DNA from: Mobula birostris
Taxonomy: Eukaryota
Assembly: GCF_030028105.1 (NCBI RefSeq)
Contig: NC_092378.1
Coordinates: forward strand, 22,934,715 to 22,998,714
Direction of reading: 5' to 3'
Length of the DNA: 64,000 nucleotides
The first letter of the stretch is position 1. Every line of letters begins with the position of its first letter. Below, piece by piece: positions 3,103-55,149 of the stretch. The notes beneath the pieces are model-generated. The model did no database searches. It worked only from the letters and a program-made list of their open reading frames with translations, and was not told where the DNA came from. Made by a program: the position numbers and the translations under genes.

Positions 3103-4678
3103 ATGTATATCATATTATACAGTTATCAATTCGCCTAAGTCCAGCTGCTTTTTCTTGAAGTAGACGATAATTATTTTCGCAAATATGCACAGAATTTCAA
3201 CATTACGATTCTTTGTAATAAGTTTAAAAGAGATAACATCTGACTGAATACGTGAATGATTGATGGGAACCACAAGATTGATCGAAGGCGTAATACCAAA
3301 GAATTCCTGTGCACTTTATTGTCCTTAATTTTCCAATGTTGTGACATTCTTTGTAAGTGTCCTGTACATTAATATAAAATAATTTAACGTGGGAAAAATC
3401 GGAGAGAAAAATGTAAAATTGCTTATAGATGTTGTGTATGTAATAACAATTGTGAAACTAATTGAACTGGTATCACTTACAGAGCCATATAATTAATGAT
3501 CTCTGACTGGAAATTTCTTAGACTTCTCATTCTCTATTCTTACATTTCCCAGAGATTGTTTAATAATCTCATGCCTTACACATTTTCAGTTTTGCTTTTC
3601 AATCTGTTCATGATTTAGATTTTGTTTGACGTTTTTGGATAGGCTTATTACATCAGCAATTCGCTTTTATTTCCATTTGTTCCTTAATGCCATTGCATTT
3701 TCTTATTTCAATGTTCCTTGTATATATTTTCTTGTTACCTTTCCTTTCTTCAAAATGCTTCCCATTCTTTTTTCAAATTTCTACTTTCTTTAGTTGAATG
3801 TACCTGTCAAACATTTATTTTACCCAGTAGTACCATTAATTTCCTATTTCCATTTTATATTGTTTGCTTACTGTGTTATTTTTAATGTTTTTCCATAATA
3901 TTAATCTGAGAAGCTAGGTACCTTCATTCTTAACATCATTTATGTGTTTAGTTTTCTGGAAGTACCAATCTTTCATAATTACTGAAGGCTCCAGCCCATA
4001 ACAAGAAATTCACCTAAAATAAACAACAAAATAGTAAATGTAATTTAAATTAATCTTTTATCTTCATTTCCTGATCTGACCAGATGGTCTAGGTATAGTC
4101 ATGCAGTACACATTATTTGCATTACTAAGGTGGTCGAATGGAAGAGCGGAAGACTTGGATTCAAGCCCTGGTCTTGGCCGCATCCTAACTTGCTTCTTGC
4201 TGAGTTCTGAGTTGTTTATCTCAGGTAGGTTGCCACAGCACCAAAGAATGAAAGCACTAACCTAACAGGAGTGATGGGACTCCAACTACTGCCAAAGTTG
4301 ATGTCAGTAGCCAACCTTAATTATTAAAGGATGTAGAAAATGTCCAGTATTGGAATAATGCATATACAACAAAGCAGCTCTTAAATTTTTTTAATAAAAT
4401 GCACTATGGTCCCAATATCTGAACTAGGGTAGTTGTTTCATAGTTTAAGTATCATCCCTTGAAAGTGATCCCTAAGTACTTTGATCCAATTAGATAAATA
4501 AATACACAGGCACTGTAGATAACAATTTAAAAAGGAAGTTTGTTGGGAGAAGGACAAAAATTGAAACAAGTTTTCTGTGTCTGCTGGTTAATTATTGATT
4601 TCATCATATGCATAGTCAAAAGTCCTAACTTAATCCACATTTCGAATCTAAAGTTAAAGCATAATGCAATATGCTTTG

Positions 4679-4844
4679 AGCAACACACACAAAATGCTGG
4701 TGGAACACATCAGGCCAGGCATTATCTATAGGAAGAAGTACAGTCGATGTTTTGGGCCGACACCCTTCGTCAGGGTCTGCTGCGTTCCACCAGCATTTTG
4801 TGTGTGTTGCTTGAATTTCCAGCATCTGCAGATTTCCTGGTGTT
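4679..4844. mobile_element. Short Penelope-like fold-back insertion (two inverted pLTR 3' ends)
   Basis: Arms caacacacacaaaatgctggtggaac / gttccaccagcattttgtgtgtgttg; 14-bp TSD tgcaatatgctttg (4665-4678, 4845-4858); decayed hammerhead motif on the - strand. Confidence 0.85.
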
Positions 4845-7238
4845 TGCAATATGCTTTGTTTCTTCTTTCTCAACATTTGTTCCAATTCGAAACACTTGAT
4901 GCCTAAATATTTGGAATCGTTCATTATTCTATAATTATATTGAGTAATAATAACTCAGAGCAATAGCAAAATGATAATTAAATATCCAAGAGTTTGATTA
5001 CGTATAAGTACTTACCTTGTCTTGAACCCAGCCCATGAAATAGGCTTTGAAGTTCCACTGATAACGTATAAGCGATAATGGCAAATTAAATGGATGCTGC
5101 CTGTGAATGCTTTTTAATATGTTTATTGTGTCTGACATACATTTTATGGTATGTTATCATCTATACATTTTCAATAGATTTATGAATTATTCCTTCATGA
5201 AAACACTTCATCACTGTAATTCATAGCTGACACATTTCAATCATCGTTATATGACAAATTGCATTGTTTCACTTTTGCTGTTTAAGCAGGTTTCTCTCAA
5301 CATAATGCACTGGAGTGGAAATTGCTGCTGTTAGATCTTCTGATGAATACCAGTGCCATTATGGCTGAAAATTAATAATTAAGCAATGCAACCTTGTTAT
5401 ACTGTAAAACCTGCTCAACAAAGTGCTTATAAATATTTTTAAATCCTTTGTTCATTATATCTATTTATGTTTTAAAATGCTGTAAAATGGGAGGATATTT
5501 TAATGTTTTTTACATCTGTATTGTATATTTTCTTTGAGGAAAATAAAAATAGAAAATGCTGGAAATAATCAGCACCTGTGGATGGCATTTCAAGGACAAT
5601 GTTTTAAGTTAGAAGTATGTTATCAAACTGGAAATAGTTAAAGATGCACAGGTTTTAAGATGTAGAAAAGAGGAGGAGGACAGGGAATTGTCCACCTTGA
5701 AATTCTTCTCTTCCTCTCTGATTTCTGTTCATGTCTTTTGCTTCTTTACCTTTATGGCCTTCCCTTCTCTTTATACCTTTCATTGGTTACCCACCAAAAT
5801 CCGCTTTCACAGCTCAGATTCAGCCCACATGAATCCCTATTGAAACTCCACATCAAATACCAACAAGATATTCATTGTTTCTTAAACATTATTCTCAAAA
5901 CATCCTACAACCCATGCTTTATGTAAATGTCAGCACAAACCTGGCCATGGCCTCCCTTTGTACCAACATTGATTCTCCTTTTCTCATAACTGTCGTGATC
6001 TACTGCTTCAGTTCATCTTTCTCCTCATCTGGTGCTATAACTGACTTTCATTCCTTGCTTTCTGCACCTAAAAACCTGTGTGTTGCCAAATATACTTGGT
6101 TGTTATGAAAGGTAATTGAATTAAACATTAATTGTTTCTTGATAAAACTATGATAAAAACTTTTTTAAGAAAAAGTTTTTATTGTAGTTTTGGAAGCTAC
6201 TATCAGTTTTCGTTAAAATTGACTATGCAATTTTGTGAACTTCTGCCTTGTGATAATATTTAGGGAATTTTAAGCAAAAGCAACAAAAGTAAGTTGCAGT
6301 TTTTAATCTTTTAATTCATTGTAAACTCAGCAATGTATCTCAGTAAGAGATAGACAAGAAGTATTTGGTGAGGATATGGTTCAAGCTCCCAGCAATTCAT
6401 ATTTCAACATTCTGTTAATTATTATGTTCTGCCAAATGATCAAATGACAGCTGCAGTAAGTTAACATTTAACCTGTTCCTTGCTCTCTTCTTCATCTGGC
6501 TAAGTTGATGAAATAACAATATATCAAAGCTATCATTCTCGGCACCCAGAAAAAGATGCCAATGCTTTCCTTCACACCCAGAAAATGTGGTTTAGTCGTA
6601 GAAAGCTGATTGATATGTTGTTTAAGCAAGAAGTAGGCTTCAGAGGGTATCCAATATGAGATAATTCCATCTTTATCCAACACTCTCTATCTTTGACCCA
6701 CCATGGTAGAACACATTTTCATGTTTTTGTTATCTCAAGATTTGATACTTGAACAGGACCATGTTGGCTTTCAGAATCTTCTTTGTACTAACTTAATCTT
6801 TTTCATAAAGTTAACTGCTTCCAGGTTATCTCACTCTGTGCCTCTTTCTAGTAATTGCACTTCAAAAATAACAAAACTTTAATATGAATTAGTTGTATGT
6901 GATTTCCTTTGAAACATTCTGAAAATGTAGAAGATTTAGAAGATTCTGTTATGGATCTCTATTGTGGACTGAGAGTGGGAAGAGGGCAGGGAGAGGAGAA
7001 TCATGGTTGGGAAAAGAGGAACGGAGAGGGGAAGGAGTGGGAAACACCAGAGAAACATTCTGTAATGTTCAATAAACCCTGCATGGAGTCTCAGGGCTGG
7101 GAGTGTCTGCACCCACCCTGGCGTTCCTTCTCTTCCACCTGTCCCACCCCCTCCTGTGTGGCTCCACCCTCCCTATTCCCAACATCCTTTGCTCCCACCA
7201 GATTTACAAACTCACTCTCTGCCCCATGTTGACAAAAA

Positions 7239-7295: not shown

Positions 7296-8186
7296 TTTAT
7301 TTTTTTTTAAATCATGATTGTATCATGCTCTATCTTTATAGCCCTCTCTATTACCTAAACCAGTGACAACTTATGCTCTTTTAACATTGGTCCCCAGTGC
7401 ATCATTCCCTCATCCTTCACCAGAGGTCTTTAACCACTGAGCTTCAATATTCTTCAACTCAGCCACTGAAAATTTGTTTCCTATCTTGAAAGTCTCCACA
7501 AAACTAATCCTTTCTATTTCATGTTTAGTTATTAATCACAATTCTGTACTACTCTAATAGTTTCCACTCTCGAAACAGAAAAGCTTCTGATCTTTATTAT
7601 AACAAAGTTGTTTCTTCTTTAAATTCCTATATTGATTTCCCAGCCCATGAGACTAAGGTCAAGTGTGCACTTTATTTTTGCAAATATTTATCTTTAATTA
7701 AATACAAAGATTAATTTTATAGCTTAACTTTTGTTTTCTTTTTGTTCTATTGCTAAGATTGCATTCCATAATTCCCAATACCCCTGGATATTATAAGGTT
7801 ACCAAGCCAACTTCCTTCATCATTTCCAAATGCTTTAATCCATTTGATTCTTAGGCTATAAAGTTTAAATTACAAGAACAGTTTGAATAGTCTTAGGTTC
7901 TAGTTCAATTCATATAAATGATTAAGGGAAAACTAATTAAGGTTTTTAAGATAATTAAGCAATTTAATACCTTTATTTCTCTTTTAGGAGTTTTGAAAAG
8001 TGAACTACAAGAATTGTTTAGTTCACATGATAGGTTAGGAATTACATCTTCAGACAAAGGTAGTGGAAACCTGGAGTTTCAAAATGTTGTTCGGAAGGCA
8101 GTGATTTGAAAATTTCGAACTAATATTACTCCCATTTTTGTCAGGCAAGTGTAAAAAGAATTATGAAACCGAGGCTGATAAATAAG

Positions 8187-8400
8187 AAACACTGGAAATT
8201 CTGTAGATGCTGGAAATCCTGAGAAACACACAGAAAAGTCTAGTGGAACTCAGCATGTAAGGCAGCATCAGGAACTGACATAAAGCATGAATACCTGGGG
8301 CTCATATGAGTGCCAATGGCAACACCTTTGGTTTGGTAGTCCTGATGAAGGGCAAAATGTAGTCTTTTTATTTCCCTTCATAGATATTACCTGACTTGCA
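8187..8400. mobile_element. Old Penelope-like pLTR fold-back remnant
   Basis: - strand arm (ctgtagatgctggaaatcc...ggcagcatc) plus + strand arm (tagtcctgatgaaggg...). Confidence 0.6.
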
Positions 8401-11400
8401 AATAAATAAATTATAAATCAGGCTTCATTTAGTTGTAAGGTGGAAAAAGCTTGAGGGACTCAGTTGTCCACTCCTGACTTTATGCTTCCCTGCATCATTT
8501 TCTTAAAATAAATAATCCAAGTGTATCAGGTCTTTTATTACAGTTTAGTCTTTTGTTACAGATATTGCACAAATGCTTCATAGTTATACTTTCTGTAAGT
8601 TCTAAAGTGAGGCACTTAGAACTAAACACAATATTCTAAATGAAGTCTGATTATATTCCAAATGAAGTTCTGTGTAATAGCAGGAGCACTTGATCATTCT
8701 TACATTTTATACCTAAAGTAATTAATTATACTATCTTAGTACATTTGGTACTAGATTGTAATGGATTTTCAATACCTAAAACTTTTAGTTAAGCTGTCAT
8801 GATATTTCTCAATTTAGATTTTCCGTCATCCGCCAGTTTTGCAACTATTATGTGTAACAGCTGCAGCATGCTTTATGTTTTGTCTTGGTCCTGCCTTTCA
8901 GCTAATTGTGTCCTTATGCAATTTTATGTCTTCTGTAATTTTATGTTTACTTCACCATTCAGTATACTTCCTAACCTGTCAGTTTTTGCCCTAGCTTATT
9001 ATATAGAGAGATGATAACATGATAATAGAATGAACATGTCCATTTGTTCAAGAAATCAGATGACACAGACGATACAATTATTTTGCATCTGTAGTAATAG
9101 TATGAAAGGGTAAATTTAAATACTATGCAACTATACCACTTAATGTTTGTGATAGATCTGTTTGTTAATATTCATGTGCTATAGCCTGTGCTTTGGTTGA
9201 ACCCAGCCAAAATTAATAAACTGAAATACACTTTTGATGGAATCAAAAAGTCATTCCCATATTTGTATAATTCCATTCCATATTTGCTTAATTGGTGTTG
9301 ATACTGGTCTAACTACAGGTCGGCATCTACCTTCTTAGTCTACCAAATTAATTAAGCTGAAGTATTAACAACTAATCTGTTAAATTACTAAAAATCTTAG
9401 GCTTAAATCACTTTGTACCTCAATTGTGGTGCTTTGAAGCGTGCAAGATTTAAGCCTAGATAAAGAAATCTATCATTTGACAATGAATGAATGATGATTT
9501 ATTCTATTGCATCTAATTAATTTTAGGACTAATAAATACAGAAATAATGCCTAATTAATTTATAATGGAAGCATCAGGTATGGAAAAAATACATTCCCAG
9601 AGGAGTAATTGGACTTTAGTTTATGTTGCTTAAATCATGCAAAAATTGACCACTCCTATCTGCACTTTAAGTTCTGGAGAGGTCAATGGAAGCAAATGTG
9701 CAAAGGTGTGCACTTCCGGTATATTTCTGCATGCTTTAATGGTAAATGACACGTTCCTTATCTGGAATATTGATTTGATCTTTCTGAGTCTAATCCATAC
9801 TAATATTGAATTTGCACCTACAACACATTGTCATTTGATTTCAGTTTTATGGTTCCTACAGTAAACTATCTTTCAAGATATGCACCTTTATGTACATTCT
9901 GTAAAAGTATATTTCTGCAAATGTTTACTTTTAAATGTTACAATGTAGATTGAGAAAAATGTTCAAGTTTAAAGAACTTTATTTGGTTTCCACTACTCTG
10001 AAAATAAAGTAAAATACTAGTTTTCTCTCTTGGAGTTTTATTCCATAAACATTTTTTAATGAGTCACCACAGTATGACAACATGACTCAGAAGAAATCAG
10101 ACTCTGCCCCCATTACTTTTCTATTAGCTTCCAATGACACTTACAAGCTTCTTTGTAGTATAGCAATGAGGACTCCAAAGTAAGTGATGCTACCCTTTCA
10201 GATCTATTTCAGTATATTTTTTCATGGACCTCATGTACATGCAGGTACATTCATCCTTTTCTCTTGCACATTCACATCTGTCCATCTGCAAGCACTCATT
10301 GCTAATCAGCTTTATCTTCACAAAATTATATCCTCTTCCTCACAATTACCAACTAAAATCAATACCTATCCATATGTTTTAGAGAATATTATCGCTCAAT
10401 GGTGTCTTCTTGCCCGCATGGGAGAAGGGAGCATGAAGCTACATAAATGTATAGAATCCAAAATTGCCTTCTAGCCTTCACCCACTAGTATATGCAAATA
10501 AAAAAAACAGGGACTTTAGAATATATGGTTCTTTTAGAATGGGGAGGAGGAGGTTTTATTATGATCTGTGATAGAATTGCATCTCATCCAGCAACCTTGC
10601 TTAAAACATCCACTGGATTGGATGTCAGCAAAAATTAAAAAGTAATCAGGTATAAAATTAAAATCTTAAAAATACCTTGAGAATAGTAATTCACATCTTT
10701 AAACTCCCATGAACCCACAACAGGAGGGCAATGTTGAAGGCTCTTCCAAGGTGGTCCCCATTCTGAGGCTCTGTTTCGTAGGCCTCATGCTTATTCTCCA
10801 CGCACAGGTTCTCACACTTTAAGACAGGCTCAAAATCACCAAGTATGCAGAATGGAGGAAGCAATGACAGTAGTGGAATTTCTAGAAGACACAGGGCTCT
10901 CCAAACTCAACTGAGCTGGATATACTGTAGATGATGCATCTCGGGAAACACAAATGCAGAGGTGCATAGATAGATATCCCAGCATCAAAGTACAGAGTCA
11001 TCCTTGAGATGGAGGGCTGTGATGATATTATTTGCTGATCATCATTGAGCAATAAGTGCGGCATAATAGTGAATACAAATCCTTGCTGAGAACTGCACAC
11101 TGAATGACAGACATCCTAATCTGGGCCATTCTGTGTTCCACTGGCCTACAGACACACAGCAAAACTGTTAGCAGTGTAGTTTTAACCCCAAATATAGAAA
11201 AGCTGTAAGGTGATGAGAGCAAACGTACAAGTAGAACTTCAATCAATGCCCCTCCCTTTTCCTAGAGAATTCACCCACCATTTAGTGCCCTGATGGTATT
11301 GTTGTATGGGGAGGAAGGTTCTGGAATGCATAAAACTCTTAGGAAGTGACCACAAGTATTTCAGACATTCAGAGCAAACTGCTGCTGTGGAAACTCTCGA

Positions 11401-17094: not shown

Positions 17095-17228
17095 ATGATG
17101 TAGGAACTCAGCAGGCCAGGCAGCATCTATGAAAAAGAGTAAGCAGTCAACGTTTTGGGCCAAGAGTCTTCATCAGGACTAGAAAGAAAGAGGAGAAGTC
17201 AGGTTAAGAAGGTGGGGAGAGGGAAAGA
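17095..17228 (-). mobile_element. Penelope-like pLTR fragment with decayed hammerhead
   Basis: - strand reads agtcCTGATGAagactcttggcccAAAAcgttgact. Confidence 0.75.
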
Positions 17229-17982
17229 GATTTACTTAGAAGATTGATTTCTCCAACCAAACCAGCCAAAATGAGCTTTGCTGATATCATGTAAGTAATG
17301 CAAGACTATCTGGAATTGAAATCATTGTTGATTGCAGAATGCTTAAGGTTTCATAAGTGGGATCAAAAGGAAAGGGAGCATACGTGTTGAATTGAAGAGG
17401 TTTACTGAGCATTGTCAGTTTGGTAATGGACTTTGTGATGCACTGAGAGATTATTTTGTTCGTGGTATCTTACAAGAAAGCATCAAAATGGCTCTTAACT
17501 GAAGCACACCTTACATTTAAAAGAGCAGTTGAAATAGCTGTATTAATGGAAACATCAGACAGAGACACAATTAAGTTGCAATCAGGAATGAAAGTGAGTG
17601 TGAACAAAATTACAACGTCTAAACAGAAACTGGCCTGGCCACACAAATTGTGTTACCATTGTGGTAGGGGCTCACGCACCAAACTGATGCAGATTTAAAG
17701 CTGCAACTTGCAGAAATTGCAACTAAGTAGGATGCATACAAAGAGCATGTTGGTCAGATAAAAATAAATGGACTGCAAAGGGAAGAGAAAAAGATAAAAA
17801 TTCTGGTTGCAGTTGTAAAAAGAGCACCAATCTGCATGCTGTTGATGAAAAATCTGATAATGATGAAAGTGGCACAAGACTGCGTAGCCCTGAGATTTAC
17901 AACAAGACACAAGCAATATGCTTACACCAGAAGTGAATAACAAATTAATTAAAGTCAAATTGGACATTGGTTTGGCTGTTCA

Positions 17983-19005: not shown

Positions 19006-19110
19006 TGTCCACAACTGTCAGAACCACATCCTGCAGACTCAGAGTCATCTCCTACAACCTCCACAGAGGAGGCCCCAGAACCCTGAGATTGTTTTCACAG
19101 CCACAAGTCT

Positions 19111-20010: not shown

Positions 20011-20156
20011 CCAGCAGATACCTTCCTTGTACCAAGTATCAAGTTCCTTGTCAGGAAAGACATTACCCTACAAGAATAAGAAATCCTCCACATTGATTAA
20101 ATCTTTAAACCTGAAGGGGACTATTTAAAACCTACTATGCAGTGGATGTCTATATA

Positions 20157-21627: not shown

Positions 21628-21629
21628 GT

Positions 21630-26665: not shown

Positions 26666-26874
26666 AAGCGCAAGAGATCCTGCAGATGCTGGAAATCCAG
26701 AGCAACTCACACAAAATGCTGGAGAGGCTCAGCAGGTCAGGCAGCATCTTCGGAAATGAATAAACAGTTGATGTTTCTGGCTGAGACCCTTCATCGGGAC
26801 TGGAAAGGAAGGAGAAAGATGCCAAAATAAAAAGGTGAGGAGAGGGTAAAGAGGAAAAGCTAGAAGGTGATAGG
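26666..26874 (-). mobile_element. Single-arm Penelope-like pLTR insertion
   Basis: 12-bp TSD tccctaataagt (26654-65, 26875-86); decayed hammerhead. Confidence 0.85.
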
Positions 26875-30150: not shown

Positions 30151-32034
30151 AACACCAAAGCAAAATTAGAGGGAAAAACAGAGGATTGGGAAGCTTTTAA
30201 AATCCTACAGAGAGCAACTAGAAGAATCATTCGAAAGGAAAAGATGAAATATGAAAGTAAGCTGGCAAACAATATCAAAGTGGATAGTAAAAGCTTTTTC
30301 AAGTGTGTAAGAAATAAAAGAGAGATAAGAGTGGATATAGGACTGCTAGAAAATGAGGCCAAAGAAATAATAATGGGGGCCAAGGAAATGGCAGATGAAC
30401 TAAATGAGTATTTTGCATTGGTCTTCACTGTGGAAGACACTAGCAGTGTGCCAGATGTTGAAGAGGGTGAGGGAAGAGAAGTGAGTGCAGTTTCTATTAC
30501 AAAAGAGAATGTGCTCAAAAAGCTGAAAGACCTAAGGGTACATAAGTCATACACCAGATGAATTGTACCTTTGGTTCTGAAAGAGGTAGCAGTAGAGATT
30601 GTGGAGGCATTATTAGTGATCTTTCAAAAATCTTTGGATTCTGGCATGGTGCCAAAGGACTGGAAAATTGCAATTGTCACTTCACTCTTTAAGAAAGGAG
30701 GAAGGCAGCGAAAAGGAAATTATAGACCAGTTAACCTGACCTCAGTGGTTGGGAAGATGTTAGAATCAATTGTTAAGGATGAGGTGATGGAGTACTTGGT
30801 GACACAGGACAAGATAGGACAAAGTCAGCATGGTTTCCCTCAGGGAAAATCTTGCCTGACAAACCTGTTGGAATTCTTTGAGAAGATGACACGTAGGATA
30901 GATAAAGGGGATGCAGTGAATGTTGTATATTTGGACTTTCAGAAGGCCTTTGGCAAGGTGCCACACATGAGGCTGCTTACCAAATTAAGAGCCCATGATA
31001 TTACAGGAAAGTTACTAGCATGGTTTGAGAATTGGTTGATTGGTAGGAGGCAGCGAGTGGGAATAAAAGGATCCTTTTCTGGTTGACTGCCAATGATTAG
31101 TGGTGCTCCACAGAGGTTGGTGTTGGGACCACTTCTTTTTTATGCTGTATATCAATGATTTAGATGATGGAGTAGGTGGCTTTGTTGCCAAGTTTGTAGA
31201 GGATACAAAGATTGGTGAAGGGACAAGTAGTGTTGAGGAAACAAGTAGGCTGTAGAAGGACTTAGACAGATTAGGAGAATGGGCAAGAGAGTGGCAAATG
31301 AAATACAACATTGGGAAAATGCATGGTCATGTACTTTGGTAGTAGAAATAAATATGCAGACTATTTTCTAAACGGGGAGAAAATCCAAAAATCTGAGTTG
31401 CAAAGGAATTTGGGAGTCCTTGTGCAGAGCACCCTAAGGGTTAACTTACAGATTAAGTCGGTTGTAAGGAAGGCAAATGCGATGTTAGCATTCATTTCAA
31501 GAGGCCTAGAATACAAGAGCAGGGATGTGATCCTGAGGCCTCTCCTGGAGTATCGTGAACAGTTTTGGGCTCTTCGACTAAGTAAGCATGTGTTGGCATT
31601 GGAGAGGGTTCAGAGGAGTTTCACAAGAATGATTCTGAAAATGAAAGGGTTATCATATGAGGAGCATTTGATAGCTCTGGGTCTGTATTCACTGGAATTT
31701 AGAAGGGTGAGGGGGGACCTCATTGAAACTTTTCGAATATTGAAAGGCCTGGACAGAGTCAATGTGGAAAGGATGTTTCCGATGGTGGGGGAAGTCCAGG
31801 ACAAGAGGGCACAGCCTCAGGATAGAGGGGTGTCCACTTAAAACAGAAATGTGGAGAAATGTCTTTAGCCAGAGGGTGGTGAATTTGTATAATTTATTAC
31901 CACTTGTATCTGTGGAGACCAGGTCATTGGGACGAAGTTGATAGGTTCTTGATTGGATATAGCATCAAAGGTTATGGGGAGAGGCTGGGGAGTGGGGCTG
32001 AGGAGGGGAGAAGAAGATCAGCCATGATTGAATG

Positions 32035-33402
32035 CAAACAACAGGAATTCTGCAGATGCTGGAAATTCAAGCAACACACATCAAAGTTGCTGGTGAACGC
32101 AGCAGGCCAGGCAGCATCTGTAGGAAGAGGTGCAGTCGACGTTTCAGGCCGAGACCCTTCATCAAGACTAACTGAAGGAAGAGTGAGTAAGGGATTTGAA
32201 AGTAGGAGGGGGAGGGGGAGATCCAAAATGATAGGAGAAGACAGGAGGGGGAGGGATAGAGCCAAGAGCTGGACAGGTGATAGGCAAAAGGGGATACGAG
32301 AGGATCATGGGACAGGAGATCCGGGAAGAAAGACAAGGAGGTGGGGGGGGGGGACCCAGAGGATGGGCAAGAGGTATATTCAGAGGGACAGAGGGAGAAA
32401 AAGGAGAGTGAGAGAAAGAATGTGTGCATAAAAATAAGTAACATATGGGGTACGGGGGTCCGCCACCTCCAACGGGATCCCACCACTAAGCACATCTTTC
32501 CCTCCCCCACCCCTGCATTCCGCAGGGATCGCTCCCTACGCAACTCCCTTGTCCATTCGTCCCCCCCCATCCCTCCCCACTGATCTCCCTCCTGGCACTT
32601 ATCCGTGTAAGCAGAACAAGTGCTACACATGCCCTTACACTTCCTCCCTTACCACCATTCAGGGCCCCAAACAGTCCTTCCAGGTGAGGCAACACTTCAC
32701 CTGTGAGTCGATTGGGGTGATATACTGCATCCGGTGCTCCCGATGTGGCCTTTTATATATTGGCGAGACCCGACGCAGACTAGGAGACCGCTTTGCTGAA
32801 CATCTATGCTCTGTCTGCCAGAGAAAGCAGGATCTCCCAGTGGCCACACATTTTAATTCCACATCCCATTCCCATTCTGACATGTCTATCCACGGCCTCC
32901 TCTACTGTAAAGATGAAGCCACACTCAGGTTGGAGGAACAACACCTTATATTCCGTCTGGGTAGCCTCCAACCTGATGGCATGAACATCCACTTCTCTAA
33001 CTTCTGCTAATGCCCCACTTCCCCCTTGTACCCCATCTGTTACTTATTTTTATGCACACATTCTTTCTCTCACTCTCCTTTTTCTCCCTCTGTCCCTCTG
33101 AATATACCTCTTGCCCATCCTCTGGGTCCCCCCCCCCCCTTGTCTTTCTTCCCGGACCTTCTGTCCCATGATCCTCTCATATCCCCTTTTGCCTATCACC
33201 TGTCCAGCTCTTGGCTCTATCCCTCCCCCTCCTGTCTTCTCCTATCATTTTGGATCTCCCCCTCCCCCTCCTACTTTCAAATCCCTTACTCACTCTTCCT
33301 TCAGTTAGTCCTGACGAAGGGTCTCGGCCTGAAACGTCGACTGCACCTCTTCCTAGAGATGTTGCCTGGCCTGCTGTGTTCACCAGCAACTTTGATGTGT
33401 GT
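32035..33402 (+). mobile_element. Penelope-like element (Neptune-like), fold-back: inverted pLTR 32035-~32457 plus GIY-YIG body and pLTR
   Basis: 15-bp TSD agccatgattgaatg (32020-34, 33403-17); ORF 32549-33010 with Cys linker CKQNKCYTC and endonuclease VIYCIRCSRCGLLYIGET..L.DRFAEH. Confidence 0.93.
33307..33342 (+). ncRNA. Minimal type I hammerhead ribozyme motif in PLE pLTR (predicted cleavage after C33338)
   Basis: AGUC-CUGACGA-AGGGUCUCGGCCU-GAAA-CG-UC-GACU: stem I AGUC/GACU, intact core, stem II hairpin, palindromic ACGU in place of stem III. Confidence 0.8.
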
Positions 33403-36915: not shown

Positions 36916-36917
36916 GT

Positions 36918-39711: not shown

Positions 39712-39869
39712 CCACCCTCCAAAAAAGGAAAATTTTTGGTCTTTTATGAGCAAAATTTTAACAACTATTTACAAAAAAACACGCATGTATAAAACCTACA
39801 ACATACACAATATACACAGTATTATCATACAGAACCTTCCCTCCATCAAAAAAAATTTACATTGTACAT

Positions 39870-41084: not shown

Positions 41085-41140
41085 CCAATATGGATGTTGC
41101 TTTACAGGTTTGGCATCTCCAACATCTATATCATGTGAAG

Positions 41141-42794
41141 CTACTGTGGTTGTTTTGGGAAAATCTGGAAATAAATCCCTATATTTAATATTAACTGCTT
41201 CATCTGCTGCCTCTGCTCTGGCTGTAACTGAGCTAATTTCTCATCAATATTTTCCAGAATTATTGAGTTTGGTAACCTGGCAGAAATAATGTTGGGTTTA
41301 AAATGAGTTTCAGGTGAATCATCCATTAAGTTCCTAGTGGGATCAGACCCATTATTATTGATCACAACAGTCATAGTAACAGACTGTTTCTCATAATGTG
41401 GTTTTATCATATTTATATGACAAATCTGTATTGGCCTTCTTCGATCTGGTGTTTTTATCACATAATCCACATCATTAACTTTAGATATAACCTCATAAGG
41501 ACCATGAAATTTAGCTTGTAAAAGGTTCATTTGCACAGGGAAAAGAACTAACTCCTTATCTCCAGACTTAAATGACCTCATTCTAGCTTCCTTATCACAG
41601 CAAGTTTTCATTTTCTCCTGAACTGATTTTAAATTTTCCCTAGCCAAGCTACAAGCTTTATGCAATCTTTCCTTAAATTTTAAAACATAATCCAACAAAT
41701 TAGTATGTACCTCTTTATTAATCCACTGTTCTTTTAACAAGGCCAAAGGTACTCTAACTCTATGCCCAAACACAAGTTCAAAAGGACTAAAACCTAGGGA
41801 TTCCTGCACTGACTCCCATACTGCAAATAGAAGTAAATGTACGCCCCCATCCCAATCATTTTCATTTTCCACACAATACGTCCTAATCATAGCTTTGAGG
41901 GTAGAGTGGAACCTCTCCAAGGCTCCTTGCAATTCTGGATGGTATGCAGATGAGATAATCTGCTTTGCTCCCGGTTTATAAACTATCTGCTGAAGCAATC
42001 CAGATATAAAATTAATACCTTGATCAGATTGTATTTCCTTAGGCAACCCAAAGTAATTAAACAATTTTATGGGCCTTTATTACAGTTTTAGCCATTATAT
42101 TCCTAAGTGGTATTGCCTCTGGAAACCTAGACACTGTGCACATGATGGTCAGCAAATATCGATGGCCAGTTTTGGTTTTTGGCAATGGGCTTACATAGTC
42201 TATAATAATTTTTGAAAATGGTTCACTAAATGTGGGAATAGGTTGCAGTGGGGCCACTGGAGTAACTTGATTAGGTTTACCCACAATTTGACAAGTATGA
42301 CACATTCTGCAAAATGTCGCCACATCTTTTCTTAAACTATGCCGGTAAAAATATTTAAAAACCTTGTTCACAGTTTTCTTCACACCTTGATGACCACCCA
42401 AAGTCATACTATGAGCCATAGTTAAGATCTTATTCCAATAAACTTCAGGAACTACTACCTGGTGAAAAACCTTCCACTCCTCACTTGCAGGAATTGTAGG
42501 TGATCTCCACTTCCTCATTAATACTCCCTTCTCGAAATAATATCCTACTGGCACTTTCCAAATTTCACTATCTGGAAGAGCTTGTTCTTTTAATTTGATA
42601 ATCTCAGGGTCTCTACTCTGCTCTGCTATCATCTCCTTCTGAGACAGAGACAAGTCTTCATGGTCAGACTTACTACAAGAACCTTGATCAAACAATGAAG
42701 ATAAGAAAGTTTCTGACACATGCTCAAAATTCAAATCCCGAGTTGAACAGTCATGGGTAACAGACCCATCCTGCACATCAACCTTTTTAGCCAT
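41141..42794 (-). pseudogene. Gmr1-like pol: integrase (upstream of RT)
   Basis: HHCC motif (H.MTLGGH...CHTC), DDE motifs IIIDYV / IQSDQG / GALERFH and a GPY module; frameshift near 42060. Confidence 0.92.
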
Positions 42795-43247
42795 AGCTCA
42801 GGTTACAACACAGGAGGAATCCATGTTAGATTCCATCTTTGGTTCCTCAGAAATGGGCTTTATTGTCAAAGGCACTTCAGGAAAAACATGTCCATCTGCT
42901 AAGTCATTTCCTAACAATAAAAAAAACATCATTCATGGGAAAACTGGTTTGTAGTCCTAATTTAACAAGTCCTGTAGCTAACCCTGAACTTAAATTTACT
43001 TTGTGCAAATGTACAGGCATAAGGGCACTCCCAACACCTCGTATATAGTTTACCTCAGCAATGTCAGACTCATCACTAAACTTTAGAACACTGTCTAACA
43101 TAAGTGAATAAGAAGCTCCAGTACCCCTAAGTACTTGTATTGGCACTGGAGTGGATCCCTCTTTCAAAGATACAAATCCTTCGGTTATAAAATGATCATA
43201 TCCCCTCTTAACTTGGTCAGACTCTGACAAAGCTTCATTTGTATTTA

Positions 43248-44294
43248 AACGCAAACAACAGGAACTCTGCAGATGCTGGAAATTCAAGCAACACACATCA
43301 AAGTTGCTGGTGAACGCAGGAGGCCAGGCAGCATCTGTAGGAAGAGGTGCAGTCGGCAGTTCAGGCCGAGACCCTTTGTCAGGACTAACTGAAGGAAGAG
43401 TGAGTAAGGGATTTGAAAGTAGGAGGGGGAGGGGGAGATCCAAAATGATAGGAGAAGCCAGGAGGGGGAGGGATAGAGCCAAGAGCTGGACAGGTGATAG
43501 GCAAAAGGGGATATGAGAGGATCATGGGACAGGAGGTCCGGGAAGAAAGACAAGGGGGGGGACCCAGAGGATGGGCAAGAGGTATATTCAGAGGGACAGA
43601 GGGAGAAAAAGGAGAGTGAGAGAAAGAATGTGTGCATAAAAATAAGTAACAGATGGGGTACGAGGGGGAGGTGGGGCCTTAGCGGAAGTTAGAGAAGTGG
43701 ACGTTCATGCCATCAGGTTGGAGGCTACCCAGACGGAATATAAGGTGTTGTTCCTCCAACCTGAGTGTGGCTTCATCTTTACAGTAGAGGAGGCCGTGGA
43801 TAGCCATGTCAGAATGGGAATGGGATGTGGAACTAAAATGTGTGGCCACTGGGAGATCCTGCTTTCTCTGGCGGACAGAGCGTAGATGTTCAGCAAAGCG
43901 GTCTCCCAGTCTGCGTCGGGTCTCGCCAATATATAGAAGTCCACATCTGACATACACACATTCTTTCTCTCACTCTCCTTTTTCTCCCTCTGTCCCTCTG
44001 AATATACCCCTTGCCCATCCTCTGGGTCCCCCCCCCTTGTCTTTCTTCCCGGACCTCCTGTCCCATGATCCTCTCGTATCCCCTTTTGCCTATCACCTGT
44101 CCAGCTCTTGGCTCTATCCCTCCCCCTCCTGTCTTCTCCTATCATTTTGGATCTCCCCCTCCCCCTCCAACTTTCAAATCCCTTACTCACTCTTCCTTCA
44201 GTTAGTCCTGATGAAGGGTCTCGGCCTGAAACGTCGACTGCACCTCTTCCTACAGGTGCTGCCTGGCCTGCTGCGTTCACCAGCAACTTTGATG
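43248..44294 (-). mobile_element. Penelope-like fold-back insertion inside the Gmr1-like element
   Basis: 14-bp TSD ttcatttgtattta (43234-47, 44295-308); - strand arm with GIY-YIG C-terminal half (to about 43947); + strand pLTR arm 43954-44294. Confidence 0.93.
44204..44239 (+). ncRNA. Minimal type I hammerhead ribozyme motif in PLE pLTR
   Basis: AGUC-CUGAUGA-AGGGUCUCGGCCU-GAAA-CG-UC-GACU. Confidence 0.8.
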
Positions 44295-45620
44295 TTCATT
44301 TGTATTTATTGAACCCTGTGGATTTACAGGTGTTTCAATAAGTTGCACACAAGCATCTGGGACTGCTTCCTTCTCCTTCTTCTTCAGTCGGAAACAGTTA
44401 GCTATTACGTGACCAGGTTTCTTACAATAATTACAAATAGGACCAAAATGTCTTTCCTTCACATGTTTCCCTTCATCCTTACCTTTCTCACTAACTTCTG
44501 ATTTAATTTCTGGTTTACCTAGACTCTCTGTGCTATTTTTCCTTTTAAAAGTTCTACCTGGAAGAAATTTACTCTTATGGATTAAAGCATACTCATCTGC
44601 TAATTTAGCAGACTCATGCAATGTAGCAGTGTCCCTCTCATTTAAGTATGTCCTTACTTCAACAGGGATGCTCCTTTTAAATTCCTCCAATAAAATCAAC
44701 TCTATTAATTTATTATACTCCCCATTCACATTTTTAGAGGAAACCCATCTCTCTAAACACGCAGATTTATTGTAGGCAAATTCCACGTAAGTTTTTTCCA
44801 CGGATTTCTTCAAATTTCTGAATCTTTCTCTATAAGTTTCCATAACCAGTTCATACGCTTTCAGTATATGCTGCTTCACAATATCATAATCAAGTGCTTG
44901 GTCAGCAGTTAAAGCTGTATAGACTTGTTGTGCCTTACCTCTAATTACACTTTGCAACATCACTGGCCATTTCTCTTTCGGCCACCTTGAAATCAGAGCA
45001 ATAGATTCAAAATGTTGGAACTATTTGTCCACTTCTGTTTTATTAAATGAAGGAGCCAATATAACTTTCCGACTAGCAACAAACTGTTTCCTAGAACCAG
45101 AGGACTGACTCTCCATCTTTAATTTCTCTATCACTAGTTCAAACTCCCTCTTTTTATCTGCTTCTCTAGCTTCGAATTCCTTCTGTTTATTTGTAGCTTC
45201 TAACCGACTTTGTTCCAAATCAGCTTCTAACTTTTTCTGTTTTAAGTCAGCTTCTACTCTAGCTTTTCTAATGCTACCTGTTTCATGCACAACTGGATCA
45301 CTGCTTTACTTACAGGGAACCTACCTAACTCCGCTTCATCAAAAACTCCCGAATTTATATAGTGTTCCGCGATTTTCCTCCGAATTACCAGCTTTGTTGT
45401 AACCTTCGAAATTCCTTTAAGGTCCAACCTTCTAGCAATTTCGGATACATCATCCTTTTTCACCTTCCTTAATAACTCCAGGTCTGGCAATGCAATAAAC
45501 TCTTCAATATTCATTGCTGCCAAATACTACCTACAGACCAATCAAACAGAAGAATTGGGTATTTCCCTTTTCCAAATCAGATTGATAATTAAGCAAGCAC
45601 TTAAGCTCAAAATCGGAACA

Positions 45621-45638
45621 ATTCAGGACGAGCCCCCA
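45621..45638 (-). promoter_or_regulatory. Primer-binding site, tRNA-Pro
   Basis: TGGGGGCTCGTCCTGAAT matches the tRNA-Pro PBS TGGGGGCTCGTCCGGGAT at 16/18, 4 nt from the 5' LTR. Confidence 0.88.
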
Positions 45639-45642
45639 ATTT

Positions 45643-46428
45643 TGGCACGTGACCAGCAACAATGAATATAGAATTGAGTCAAGTTTTATAAACAAACATA
45701 TACATTTATTAAACTCTGCTCAACAATAGCGAAAAGTATTCAAATGACTAACTTAACTGGAAGTTAACTGCTATATGGCAACTCTGGAACAGTTCTTAAA
45801 GTGGTAAATTCAAACACAGTTCTTAAAATGGTAAATTTGAAAGTCCAAGTGATTTTCACAGTCAATAAGGAGAGACTCCTCTGGAAATGGATTTCTTTGA
45901 AGACGTGACGTTACTGCTGATTCTGTCCAAAGGATTCATGACGAAGGAAATAAAACGGCTTAAAGGAACCTGGCGAATGAACACTGCAAAAGACCTTCCC
46001 GATATTACAGGCGTTATCTCAGATGCAGGTCACTATTTCTGAATGAAGATTCAATCAGGTCGATCCTATATGAAACCGCCGAATGACACCAACTTTACTC
46101 AATCCTTCAGCTTCTGGTACTTACTAAGGTCTTCACTCTCCAATACTAGACTTACAATAGAAAGTAAAACTCCACTTTAAAACGGAACCGGGTCATGAGA
46201 CGAATACGCAGCATAATGGAGTAAGTGATGAATTAAACAACGAACTAAACTGCGTAACAACAGGGGTTTCCCTTTATATACCTGCTGAGAACATGTCATC
46301 ACATGACCTCACACTGGCGGGAAAATCACATCATCCCACCATCACAAGACCATTACATCATGCTCACAAGATACTCACTTACATCATGGTCATAAGACAG
46401 TCACAAGATACGCACGAGGTATGTAACA
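45643..46428 (-). repeat. 5' LTR of the Gmr1-like element
   Basis: Direct repeat of 38946-39711, with an extra tandem copy of about 27 bp near 45789-45840. Confidence 0.93.
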
Positions 46429-51140: not shown

Positions 51141-52223
51141 GTTGGGAAGGATATACTGTATGTGTCAGGTTGGGTTTGTGGCATATAGTGAATGATTCAA
51201 CAGGAGATGTAAATTTACATGACCTCATAATCACCAATCTATTTCTGGTTAAGTACATCAATCTACAATAACACTGTAAAAATGATCACCTCACAGTCCT
51301 TATGGAGAAAAAGTCCAGTCTTCATATGAATGACACCTTTCACCATGTTGTGAGACACTACATTTGTAATAAATGCAGAGACTTGGAGCAAACTTTGCAG
51401 CTCAAAATTGGAAAGGAGGTGCCATGGAATATCAGCAGCAAAATATTGCCTAGCATTTCCCTCACTTTGTTAATACTATCAAGGCAAAGTGTATAAGCCT
51501 TATACTATAAGGGCATGTCAGGAGCTACACAAGGCAACCCTAAAAATCTGCCAAACTTGTGAAGCTGAAACACAGGACTACAAGCATACTAAACTCCCAA
51601 GAAAAATATGCATTAGGTATACAGGGATAAGTCAGCTCACAACCAATGAACTAATGACTGTGCAGTCTCATTACAACAAATTGTGAAGGGTGCTAGACAC
51701 TTTAAAAGATAACTGATGGGCAAGGCTTCAAGAACACCCCCATCCTCAACAATAGTAGGGTTCAGCAAGTGAGTCCATAGACAAGGCTTAAGCACTTGCA
51801 ATCATGCTTGTTGAATAGTACTAAGTGAATGATCCATCTTAACTTCTTCCTTAAATCTTTAGCATTTCAGCAGCTAATCTTCATACTAATCCATTCGAGC
51901 CCAGTAATATCAAAATTGACTGAGCTAATTGAATATGAGATCATTTAGTGACAATGGGATCAAACAATATTTGGCTGTAGTACATAAGACTTGGTTTCTA
52001 GAATTAGTGTTGCCTCTAGCAAAGCTATTACAGTACAATTACATTAGATATCTACAATGCGGAAAATTGTCCAAATATGATCTATTCACCAGAAGCAGTA
52101 CAATTCCAATTTGGATTTCACCAAATCAGTTCATTCTCATTCTTCAACAACATGATGGAAAATGTCATTGGCAGTGCTACCTTGAAGATATATTGTTGGT
52201 CCTTCATAACTGATGGATCTAAA

Positions 52224-52438
52224 CGCAAACACGAGGAAATCTGCAGATGCAGGAATTTCAAGCAACACACATAAAAGTTGCTGGTGAGCGCAGCAGGCCA
52301 GGCAGCATCTCTAGGAAGAGGTACAGTCGACGTTTCGGACCGAGACATGACGAAGGGTCTCGGCCCGGAACGTCGACTGTACCTCTTCCTAGAGATGCTG
52401 CCTGGCCTGCTGCGTTCACCAGCAACTGTTATGTGTGT
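52224..52438. mobile_element. Short Penelope-like fold-back insertion
   Basis: Near-perfect inverted arms of about 80 bp joined inside the hammerhead motif (52346/52347); 13-bp TSD tgatggatctaaa (52211-23, 52439-51). Confidence 0.92.
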
Positions 52439-52572
52439 TGATGGATCTAAATCCCGACAGCAGCATGATAGTCATGAATGTTGGAAGTAATCAAGAAGGC
52501 AACTCATCACCAACTTCTCCAGAAATTAGGAGTGGGCAATAAATGATGGCCTAGCCAGTGACGCCCAGATCC

Positions 52573-52616
52573 TAAATAAATAAATAAACAAACAAACAAA
52601 CAAATAAATAAATAAA
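52573..52616 (+). repeat. (TAAA/CAAA)n tail of an old LINE
   Basis: Directly visible after a LINE-like 3' UTR (52490-52572). Confidence 0.8.
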
Positions 52617-54400
52617 TGCAACAAATACTGTTTGATTTACAGGGGAACATTGGAGTATCATTTTTGATTGGGGAAAAAAACTACAGCAGCCTTAGTATGC
52701 TGGTAAAGGAGGGGATGGAATTTACACCTGTGATTGAAGTACTGATAAGTATGATTGCTTTGAATTAGTTGATGTAAAGTTTCTCGTGTTCATGCAACTG
52801 CACATATCCAGGCAAGTGGAAAGCATTCTATAACATTCCTGATTCAAGCCTTATAGCTGGTGAAATACCTTTGGAGAATTAGGCAGTAACAAACTCACTG
52901 CTGAGTACACAGACTTTGACTGGTTTAATTGCAAAAAATTTAGATGGCTGATTCAATATGGATTAGGTATTTTGAGTTGAAGCAAAACTAGAGTTTGTTG
53001 TGCAGGGACAAACTCAGGATGCAATGAATATTAAGCGCTCCTCAATTTTTGTTTTGAAATTGCGAATAGGTGATTCTTTAATTAGGGTAACTTTTCTGTC
53101 TCTGGGATTGATTTTCAAGAAAAAATTGCTTTTAAAATAGTTTAGTAATAATAGACCTAAACTTTTTTCAGTATTCTTCCTAAATAATATTTTCTTAATT
53201 TTTAAATGAATTAAAAACTTGAATATGCAAGAATTTCACTATTTTGGGCTTGTTTCCTATCCAGGCTTTGTAACTTTGTCTTCAAAATAAAGTAATAATA
53301 AGTATTAAAATGATCAAACTTTTAGTTTTTTTTCACACAAGAACTTTTAAACACATGTTAAAATCATGTGGGTTACTTTTTATACAACTTGTACATTTTT
53401 TATGACAAGGAACCACTATCCGCAACACTTCAGTCATTACCAACACACAACAGGTTTCAGAGATCAGTCAAGTTTTTTCAAACAACTGCTTATGTGGTTG
53501 CCATGGAAATGAGAATTGTGCTGTCCTGGCAGAAGGCTGACATTTTGATGTCCAGAAATGTGAGTAATTTAAAGATTTATACCTCCTGATCTGAGAGTAC
53601 GTTTATTACGTGTCATTACCAAATGAGTCATTATTTGAGTGCTTTAACTGAGAAATAAATAACTTCACTTTATTTCTGTATATTTAAATTATGTTTACAA
53701 GCTAGCAATCCAGTTAAGTTAGCAAGTGTGAGGCTGAGCCCCCTTCTTCTTTAATAAGTGAAAAATGTCATTACCATCTCATGTCTTCACCATCACAAAG
53801 CTGACAAGATGGCCCCGAAATCATCAGCAGACCAATCAAAAAAAATACAGTGACACAATTAAAACAGATCTGGTGAAGTATCAGCAGTACATTGGAAAGA
53901 GAAAGAAAAAGATACAAAAAGAGAAGGGAGACGAGAAAACTTTAAAATCTTCTCACAATTACCAAAGGGCAAACAGAGACTGAAGAGATGACAGTGGAGA
54001 GCTAATTAAAGAAACAAAATGGCTGCTGAAAGATAGGCCGTACAAAGTCTTATAGCGGAGAATATCCCGCCTGAATCTCAGTAGGCCAGCAACGAGAATA
54101 ACCTTCATCTTCCTGAGGCTTCACCTGTGACTATAAGAAGGTGCTTTAAATTTTAACTGCTGCTTTTTTCAGAGTTGTTGAGATTTCTGATAATGTTTCA
54201 TATGTCTTACTGATAAAAACAAGTATGTAGAGGGTTGAGTAAATGTTTTGTCAGTGTTAAAAAAGAGTTCTCTCTTATGGACAGTTAAAAATAATGATCT
54301 CTATAATCTGTATGAAATTTGAATTACTGCTTATTCCAGAGTTGAGGAGGGTTAGGCAGATGTTTTGTAAGCATTATTATTTTTTAACAAGCCTAGTTTA

Positions 54401-54595
54401 TACACACAGAATGCTGGAGGATCTCAGCAGGCCAGGCGCATTTATGGAAAAGAGTCAACCTGTCCTGATGAAGGGTCTCGGCCCGAAATGGCAACTTTAC
54501 TCTTTTCCATTGATGCTGCCTGGCCTGTTGAGTTCTTCCAGTATTTTTTATTACATTGATTTCCAGCATCTGCAGATTTTCTCTTGTTTGTGAAT
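54401..54595. mobile_element. Short Penelope-like fold-back insertion upstream of SAMTOR
   Basis: TSD gcctagttta (54391-400, 54596-605); inverted pLTR ends; CTGATGA...GAAA core with a decayed cleavage site. Confidence 0.85.
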
Positions 54596-55149
54596 GCCTA
54601 GTTTAGTTGGGCTGTCTATGTTCATGTTTCACGTGGGTGTTTTTAACAAAGTTCTCTGGCTGCTTGCCTTAAAAACTGTGATCTATTATAGAATTTTGAT
54701 AAATAGTGTAGACTGTAAGGATGTGTTTCTAATTGTAAGTGTTGCTTCTTCTAGTTGGACAGATGTTTTATAAGGATTAGTGTTAAATTAAAACCATTGT
54801 TTGTCAATGTCAGAAGTATTTTGTCATCACCAGCAAAGCGAGTATTTTGATGAGAAATGAAGTTTTGTTTAGTAATATTGATCTGAACTCATTTGCTGGA
54901 GTCATGTGCTCTTATACAGAATTTCTCTTAAAGGTGGGTCAATGCCAAGATCTGATCTTCATTCCAGAGCCTAAAATAAAGGTTATAACATAAACACAAA
55001 GTTTCAAGAAATTTCATTTTTCAGAATGTCAAGTCGTCAAAAGTGGCCCTAGTTGAAGAATCACCCTTATACTTCCACAGCAATGAAATGAATTTGACTT
55101 ACTTACAGACACAGGGGAAGAGAGAGAGACAAGACACACTCACACACCC

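Follow-up and report, generated by a model that had tools for sequence, protein, structure and literature searches.

A 64,000-nt stretch of Mobula birostris DNA (hereafter the window, with positions counted from its first letter) contains insertions of a Penelope-like element (PLE) in which two arms of the same 3' sequence point away from each other inside one TSD, and an extra tail is present on only one of them. The question raised by this locus is how such inverted copies with a one-sided tail are formed. Earlier publications already report inverted pLTRs tailed on one side, a pair of RT start sites and extension of both target strands, as the preliminary description had said of the inverted pLTRs and the short 3' tail; the origin of the inverted repeats with their one-sided tail is described as unresolved (PMC8557442 and an excerpt of PMC11167929). 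The architecture is thus known, and what this study provides is a sharpened and testable mechanism.

The window element is a Neptune-type PLE, judging by its linker and domain order. A 5'-truncated ORF end at 32459..33010 (+; stop codon at 33008-33010) encodes a CX4CXXC linker followed by a GIY-YIG endonuclease (EN), and the domain at 32.5-33.0 kb scored above the cut-off in Pfam (PF01541, E 3.7e-5). The EN shows the motifs YCIxCxxC...YIGET with two Cys between the motifs, and the preceding linker, CKQNKCYTC, fits the Neptune pattern CX2-5CXXC; a linker of this kind between RT and C-terminal EN is absent in Penelope/Poseidon and present also in Nematis (PMC8557442). All window copies are partial, and the succession of RT and C-terminal EN in one ORF was seen via relatives: individual ray proteins match both the RT and the EN piece of the window, with RT preceding EN (P0002, 90% and 81%), and the full-length relatives P0024 and P0034 carry RVT_1 and then GIY-YIG. 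An RT-core fragment of the same family (63119..63648, +) is split by a younger arm, and a tail-less arm (63649..64000, −) runs into the window end with no partner in the window. The inverted pLTR, the optional tail of 30-40 nt and the TSD of EN+ PLEs were all found. With the motif definition in an excerpt of PMC4209133, a hammerhead core plus 4-5 stem I pairs is predicted in the pLTR of four arms: a minimal type I motif at 33306..33343 (+), with a predicted cut after 33338 (−103 in the coordinates given below), and intact cores at 44203-44240 (+), 37272 (+) and 63746 (−). The Rfam scan reported no hammerhead in the window arms; its sole match, to a microRNA hairpin, was at chance level (40 bits against a cut-off of 140). 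The ray 3'-end pattern had no match in viral or metagenome contigs, and none of the RNA runs listed contained the ray element.

Five insertions in the window are genuine head-to-head copies of this element, with the extra tail on exactly one arm. End coordinates count from the C of ...GTTTGC (43252), set to 0, and all left TSD copies are on the + strand. Insertion 1 (TSD of 14 bp, 4665..4678 and 4845-4858) consists of a tail-less arm (4679..4774, −; −131 to −35) and a tailed arm (4774..4844, +; −73 to −3) that overlaps the TSD by 3 nt. Insertion 2 lies within a LINE remnant (TSD of 15 bp, 32020..32034 and 33403-33417); its tailed arm (32035..32458, −; about −414 to −1) contains 3' UTR only, while its tail-less long arm (32459..33402, +) ends at −39, and a paralogous LINE copy without the insert, at 19.1-20.0 kb, bridges the insertion site. 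Insertion 3, within an LTR-retrotransposon remnant (TSD of 14 bp, 43234..43247 and 44295-44308), has a tailed long arm (43248..43947, −; −695 to +4) reaching into the endonuclease coding region, a filler of 4 nt (43948-43951) and a tail-less arm (43952..44294, +; −385 to −44). Insertion 4 (TSD of 13 bp, 52211..52223 and 52439-52451) has a tailed arm (52224..52346, −; −120 to +1) and a tail-less arm (52348..52438, +; −129 to −39), overlapping the TSD by 3 and 2 nt, respectively. Insertion 5 (TSD of 10 bp, 54391..54400 and 54596-54605) combines a tail-less arm of an older subfamily (54401..54459, −; about −105 to −38) with a tailed arm (54462..54595, +) running from −133 to the terminus, at about +1, plus 3-4 unmatched nt. 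The tail between the two termini measures about 39 nt in the reference copy (43252..43290, −).

The TSDs are exact at their borders in all five insertions, whereas an abutting repeat of at least 10 bp occurred in only 3 of 3,000 random intervals matched to them in length. One arm always has the full terminus and the other ends 35-47 nt earlier. An overlap of 1-3 nt with the TSD, judged by eye, is present at six of the ten termini (the element sequence is known to +5), and either arm can enter the GIY-YIG ORF, the short-end arm at 32.5-33.0 kb and the full-end arm at 43.7-43.9 kb. In these respects the preliminary description was accurate, its overlaps of 1-4 nt being confirmed up to 3 nt. Its placement of the short end inside the TGTGTGT tract held except for the 4.7-kb insertion, whose end is 4 nt past the tract. 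Its term 'stereotyped' is overstated, since two single arms with TSDs also exist in the window, one tailed (26666..26874, −; 12 bp) and one tail-less (17096..17250, −; 11 bp). The rule of exactly one tail is therefore valid for two-armed insertions and not for every insertion. An older sixth head-to-head copy (8186..8401, no strand assigned) has an 8-bp flanking repeat, a tailed left arm and a degenerate right arm that, by eye, ends near −66, so that two-armed copies number 5-6 against 2 single-armed ones among the TSD-bounded copies; for several further copies in the window a TSD was looked for and none was found.

The same arrangement was observed in animal DNA of other origin (G001), in a related family whose closest named proteins reach only 51-58% identity in the RT region, and in metagenome loci. 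One tailed and one tail-less arm were present in all 19 TSD-bounded G001 pairs and in 4/4 metagenome pairs, that is, in 23/23 pairs of the related family and, with the window, in 28/28 across three data sets; independent choice of ends would give 0.5^24 = 6e-8 for the window and G001 pairs. Two pairs lacking a TSD break the rule, namely C205 (−50/−39) and C39 (−21/−49), of which C243 is a duplicate. The 3' ends are sharply bimodal: two intervals, 11 and 14 nt wide, take in 67 of 74 G001 arms, and among 65 metagenome ends 60 fall either between −60 and −41 or between −5 and +9; the random distribution of end-points that the preliminary description had named as refuting did not appear. These G001 counts leave out 17 of 91 arms: 13 with near-identical ends on nine contigs, which represent a single old insertion multiplied as part of another repeat, and those of C243 and of C15, a likely chimera in which the flank is also inverted. 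TSD-bounded G001 copies comprised 19 two-armed and 5 single-armed ones, and TSD lengths centre on 13 bp. Target microhomology, enriched in the range of 1-6 nt, was present at both types of end (mean 1.75 nt at 32 ends against 0.40 in the null), leaving out C10 (TSD of 7 bp only), C283 (inside a microsatellite) and C119b (read by eye).

The bimodal ends, the microhomology and the junctions support the proposal that both nicked target strands prime at two fixed sites, and we consider it probable that both strands prime, be it on one RNA or two. The narrower reading, in which 5'-truncated Neptune-type insertions arise from a single RNA read twice, has close to an even chance of being right. The target would receive staggered nicks about 13 bp apart; one strand would prime at the upstream site, about 40 nt before the tail end, and the other at the tail end. 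The cDNA begun at the tail end would either stop short, giving non-overlapping arms, or displace the first cDNA, giving overlapping ones. Both cDNAs would end by truncation or by run-off where the RNA begins, shortly before the hammerhead, their 3' ends would be joined via microhomology or fillers, and host repair would fill in. Priming of a single strand would leave a single arm. Strand displacement over 1.1 kb, as in C485, is an assumption of the one-RNA form. Both C485 arms extend into the ORF (about 1.1 and 2.2 kb), which ruled out pLTR length as an upper limit for the shorter arm. In either family the tail is predicted to form a hairpin with sequence upstream of it, each time with a single compensatory pair; its stability against shuffles showed no excess in the ray (z 0.04) and a z of −2.1 in the second family, and the hairpin was given no weight in the argument.

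The inner junctions bear on the self-priming favoured by the authors of PMC3846280 and PMC8557442, in which a cDNA or antisense RNA folds back and trimming by the endonuclease then leaves only one end of the intermediate with a tail. This would account for the similarity of the arms, their shared rare variants and the junction palindromes, and it is compatible with 6/19 G001 pairs and 2/5 window insertions, for example C334 with its 5-nt loop. However, the tail-less arm extends further upstream than the tailed one in 3/5 window, 8/19 G001 and 3/4 metagenome TSD-bounded pairs, so that one cDNA alone could not have served as the template for its partner. Four more junctions (C85, C491, C227 and C539) are palindromes with a centre of 0-1 nt on pre-existing self-complementary words; by nucleic-acid geometry these would be too tight for a hairpin primer, and they fit annealing of two cDNA ends. 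Besides, the arms of three pairs (C110, C240 and L079) have no sequence in common and those of L048 share about 5 nt, priming-type microhomology occurs at both outer ends, and in an excerpt of PMC11167929 the two ends are RT start sites in vitro. The loopless palindromes, the two-sided microhomology and the non-overlapping arms argue against fold-back, which we regard as unlikely, and against an amplified master, and they argue for both-strand priming.

Amplification of one pre-formed head-to-head master, or two independent insertions at one site, is the least credible of the explanations. C85 and C491 share an inner junction, C10 has the same centre, and a few joints are covered several times over; nevertheless, C85 and C491 differ in their outer ends and in a variant present on both C491 arms. 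The identical internal junctions predicted by such a master did not appear: all five window junctions differ and span at least three subfamilies, and nearly all junctions are different overall. When the contigs of four sequencing runs (99,901 contig records in run X1 alone) were aligned to one ray arm, the best 15 of 256 joints were each found in 1-2 contigs per run, a few being deep. Two independent insertions are at odds with the single TSD that encloses both arms. Among the six loose ends listed for run X24, both 3'-side ones lie at the two termini (43249 and 43289), a hint of two termini.

A hammerhead-processed circular or multimeric RNA, proposed for PLEs in an excerpt of PMC4209133, is very improbable as the shared template. 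Three of 74 G001 arms begin at the predicted cut site (−117/−116), a weak hint of some cleaved templates, but 28/74 begin upstream of it at −160 to −142, about 30 nt past a TATA box, and no arm was seen wrapping from the cut site to the tail. Cleavage is dispensable in vitro: hammerhead cleavage-dead mutants of the Anolis element PAc (Poseidon) still insert (excerpt of PMC11167929). Neither the circular RNA nor the hammerhead-dimer tether suggested earlier gained support, since most arms copy through the cleavage site. Insertion by cleavage-dead mutants does not bear on tethering.

Priming on two templates of the same source, either sister RNAs or the two pLTRs of one tandem RNA, held together by a protein dimer or, as the preliminary description had suggested, a hammerhead dimer, is possible but doubtful. 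All evidence for both-strand priming applies equally to it, and long strand displacement would be unnecessary. The Anolis element is predicted to be a protein dimer and minimal hammerheads function as dimers (excerpts of PMC11167929 and PMC4209133, respectively), and L016 and C728 combine a long arm with one ending at the inferred RNA start. Two templates offer no ready reason for exactly one tailed arm in every pair, for which one RNA read twice is the simpler account.

Variants between arms were compared, as had been proposed. The arms of one insertion derive from the same source copy: G001 pairs share 54 derived states in 1976 nt (27/kb against 6.5 permuted), 16 of them rare (8.1 against 0.37/kb; 0 of 2,000 permutations as high), and are far more alike than random. 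At non-CpG polymorphic sites, eight young pairs showed 0/45 mismatches; all G001 pairs together showed 7/105, where 3.0 were expected (P 0.03), and the seven came exclusively from older pairs. Since the arms share a source, a single RNA copied from both start sites is slightly favoured over a pair of sister RNAs, although sister RNAs predict no mismatches in young pairs either. In the ray window, the arms of one young insertion differ at 12/339 and 8/348 positions and those of different insertions at 6-12 per about 345, so arms within a pair are no closer. Of 13 non-CpG differences in young ray pairs (insertions 2 and 3), three coincide, in position and allele, with polymorphisms listed for the family, against a rough expectation of 0.17, or 2/12 (P about 0.01) minus a junction-proximal site. 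These 2-3 differences may be compatible with two templates, as may the mild G001 excess; gene conversion in a very abundant family could also yield them, and shared rare variants fit one RNA equally, so that the two template copies suggested earlier are not established.

Arm length classes correlate in G001 (15/2/0/3, p 0.009; p 0.0004 with the window pooled in), leaving out C110, C240 and C119b and taking in C645 and C205, which have no TSD. The correlation is weakened by 4/6 ORF-selected metagenome pairs in which a short arm is joined to a long one. In a count by eye, short tailed arms numbered 6-7/26 and equally short tail-less arms about 5/26; the former are thus not clearly commoner, and nothing points to a collision where the second start site lies.

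In canonical EN+ PLEs, the Adineta Pen2a unit has an adjacent inverted, 5'-truncated head-to-head copy (PMC3846280; scheme in PMC8557442), a tail of 30-40 nt, often on a single end, and a TSD of about 8-10 bp (PMC3846280, PMC8557442). The window insertions share the layout, one-sided tail, TSD and palindromes at the inverted junction; here the one-tail rule was counted and the TSDs are centred on a longer value. Excerpts of PMC11167929 report that two internal RT start sites downstream of the hammerhead bound the tail of PAc in vitro and that both target strands are nicked and extended. PAc belongs to another clade than the Neptune-type element, and the text excerpted stresses the lack of homology to the cleaved DNA, in contrast to the microhomology found here; in that text the inverted arm is left unexplained, and pairing of the start sites on one target molecule lies outside the tests. 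As in L1 twin priming, or the two-RNA 'dual priming' postulated for L1, both strands prime, a TSD surrounds two inverted pieces and the inner junction forms by microhomology or end joining (excerpts of PMC2837659). According to the same excerpts, the arms of L1 lack overlap, their second site varies and such events are in the minority, whereas here both sites are fixed, the arms usually overlap (5/5 in the window, as described earlier) and two-armed copies are the majority of TSD-bounded ones. The window element, with its GIY-YIG domain and no poly(A) end, works like L1 twin or dual priming but is not a member. Non-LTR retrozymes, too, are short units that derive from PLEs and contain a type I hammerhead, but those in the excerpted text are head-to-tail tandems (bioRxiv 10.64898/2026.07.22.740005), while the window arms are head-to-head and contiguous with a coding element, and do not belong to them. 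An explicit both-strand model of PLE inversion was not found in the literature and may already be in print.

As a tentative generalisation, rather short of even odds, programmed twin priming may be how Neptune-type PLEs normally insert, in hosts ranging from rays to invertebrates. A single RNP would assign each nicked strand a different fixed start on one RNA, whose own 5' end would lie at a TATA/Inr promoter shortly before the hammerhead; the same stretch would be copied twice and the cDNA ends joined. If true, a single step would explain both the inverted pLTR and the tail on one side only. The genomic pattern makes the pairing of start sites and the choice between one and two RNAs directly testable in the existing in vitro system. 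For curators, tailed and tail-less ends would be the two 3' ends of one event, and the pattern would bear on any genome-writing use of PLE enzymes.

The five two-armed copies of the Penelope-like element (PLE) at 4679-4844, 32035-33402, 43248-44294, 52224-52438 and 54401-54595 (insertions 1-5) were flanked by exact direct repeats of 14, 15, 14, 13 and 10 bp, respectively, as the preliminary description had claimed; an abutting repeat of at least 10 bp occurred by chance in 3 of 3,000 random intervals. The site of insertion 2 at 32 kb was bridged by an empty paralogous LINE copy. In every insertion, the left arm lay on the minus strand and the right arm on the plus strand. When arm ends were measured against the natural 43-kb arm, with the terminal C of GTTTGC at 43252 taken as 0, one arm of each insertion (tailed) had its end between -3 and +4, the other (tail-less) between -35 and -44, confirming for 5/5 insertions the described combination of one full and one short end, and the long arm was the tailed or the tail-less one depending on the insertion, also as described. 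Besides these five, the window carries a sixth, older copy with two arms, as well as two single arms bounded by TSDs; these single arms indicate that two arms are frequent but not required. Another tail-less arm, from 63649, interrupts an RT fragment of the family to which it belongs (63119-64000), and its partner would lie beyond the window end. Insertion 3 is hosted by a broken minus-strand LTR-retrotransposon remnant (38946-46428) with 88%-identical terminal repeats (38946-39711 and 45643-46428). The window further contains a MITE-like 628-bp repeat pair (18237-20781): the two copies are 92% identical, their ends are inverted, and repeats of 37-39 nt lie within them. An intact single-exon 7TM receptor ORF on the plus strand (1023-2201; Pfam 7tm_1, E 1.4e-37) may resemble the SREB/GPR85 group.

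An endonuclease alignment search found relatives with ca. 40-55% identity at 80 loci in metagenomes and 15 in the genome collection. Twelve of the latter belong to G001 (L082-L094 and L096-L159), a 12-Mb assembly that carries a bacterial MAG label and holds many animal-type PLE insertions. Such insertions in this and two other MAG records (L081, L091) are likely host contamination. From 424 kb of G001 (58 contigs around pattern and BLAST matches), 91 arms were collected and 74 were kept after the removal of 17 (nested repeats, one duplicate and one likely chimera). Their 3' ends were not random, falling mainly in two narrow ranges, -56 to -46 (28/74) and -5 to +8 (39/74). All 19 TSD-bounded head-to-head pairs (TSD 7-17 bp, mostly 12-14) had one tailed and one tail-less arm, as did six further metagenome pairs (6/6; four with TSD). 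One of three G001 pairs without TSD obeyed this rule and two (C205 and C39) broke it; five TSD-bounded single arms were also found. A 57-nt tail-less fragment with identical ends, recurring 13 times (C219, C252, C300, C327, C358, C378, C490, C567 and C663), was apparently carried along by another repeat. The 99%-identity inverted duplications C15 (L082 128-3260) and C238 (L089 2072-4009), which include 480-690 nt of flank past the element end, are probably amplification chimeras, two-armed 3' transduction being the less probable alternative.

Both outer ends behave like primed ends. Target microhomology averaged 1.75 nt against 0.40 expected (32 ends of 16 G001 insertions), at tailed and tail-less ends alike, and in the window the termini overlapped the TSD at 6 of 10 ends, by 1-3 nt where 1-4 nt had been reported. 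The proposal that both strands prime, at two fixed sites, survived the independent test in the G001 and metagenome pairs. As possible origins of the inverted arm, PMC3846280 and PMC8557442 put forward self-priming on an antisense template and endonuclease resolution. If a single cDNA folded back, it must be the tailed arm and reach furthest upstream; however, the tail-less arm extended further in 3/5 window, 8/19 G001 and 3/4 metagenome TSD-bounded pairs. A further four junctions in G001 were palindromic, with centres of 0-1 nt, and coincided with self-complementary words pre-existing in the element; such centres would permit annealing of two separate cDNA ends, not a hairpin primer. The arms of C110, C240 and L079 (a metagenome locus) had zero sequence in common. 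Fold-back therefore fails in most cases. Amplification of one head-to-head master copy is also unlikely, since the inner junctions differed in 5/5 window insertions (one with 1-2 nt of overlap, one with a G-run and three with fillers of 4, 1 and 2 nt) and in G001 only C85 and C491 had a common junction, yet differed elsewhere. The junction fillers in C283, C617 and C728 consisted of nearby element sequence, repeated in short copies, and resembled templated end-joining scars.

The arms within one G001 insertion had 54 derived states in common over 1976 nt (16 rare), far above permuted pairs, young G001 pairs showed 0/45 mismatches at non-CpG polymorphic sites, and insertions 4 and 1 each carried their own subfamily marks on both arms. 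These observations indicate that both arms of an insertion come from the same source. Arm length classes also correlated within pairs, although they were mixed in 4/6 ORF-selected metagenome pairs, and source heterogeneity alone could explain the correlation. Two templates, one per arm, would account for the diagnostic differences that were indeed found between the arms of insertions 2 and 3 at four sites: 43337, 43580 and 43635, which are polymorphic at 47-69% in the sequencing run X1, and 43421, a variant common to the 63.6-kb arm (rough P 0.01 or less for differences at polymorphic sites). Older G001 pairs likewise had 7/105 mismatches at non-CpG polymorphic sites versus 3.0 expected. Such mismatches could stem from gene conversion or from template jumps. 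We regard two templates as somewhat less likely than one. One RNA read from two sites, which we favour tentatively, is narrowly preferred because the strict one-tail rule follows from it without extra assumptions.

The 5' starts of G001 arms clustered at -160 to -142 (28/74; 14 at -154 to -151), 30 nt downstream of a TATA box (at -183), and short window arms started at -135 to -120, adjoining an initiator-like word at -138. Such spacing is known for TATA and initiator motifs. This suggests run-off at the RNA 5' end; a pause site is a possible alternative. A minimal type I hammerhead motif lies ca. 100-135 nt upstream of the terminus in window arms. Most arms read through its cut site, so the usual template was uncleaved, and the three of 74 G001 arms starting at the predicted cut (-117/-116; C119, C383 and C660) hint weakly that some templates are cleaved. 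Neither the suggested hammerhead tether nor a circular RNA gained support from the window, G001 or metagenome arms. Many copies of a young G001 subfamily (e.g. L084 2130-2140) have the core CCGA instead of CTGA, and the ribozyme may be weakened in this active lineage. In both families, the tail is predicted, with minimal covariation support, to pair with upstream sequence and enclose the short terminus (43252-43350, minus strand; L084 2158-2277).

Long window arms carry the end of the GIY-YIG ORF, preceded by a CX4CXXC linker; PMC8557442 ascribes linkers of this type to Neptune and Nematis and not to Penelope/Poseidon elements. Mobula and Hypanus proteins match the RT fragment at 63.1 kb with 88-89% identity, and the window pieces match single proteins in the order RT, then EN. 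The probable host is accordingly related to stingrays or devil rays. Three papers describe the textbook PLE unit as having an inverted copy next to it, a TSD, and a tail of 30-40 nt that is often confined to one end (PMC3846280, PMC8557442 and PMC8969392). For the Anolis Poseidon element, PMC11167929 reports that reverse transcription starts at two internal sites bounding the tail, that each strand of the target is nicked and extended, that a dimer is predicted, and that hammerhead cleavage is dispensable. For L1, PMC2837659 treats twin priming on a single RNA as established and dual priming on two RNAs as postulated; our literature search, whose scope did not extend to key older papers, found no paper applying either to PLE inversions. 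The window insertions are genuine and well formed; their architecture is a known one, and the Neptune-type family that carries it is new. Priming of both strands at two fixed sites explains them better than the published self-priming suggestion.
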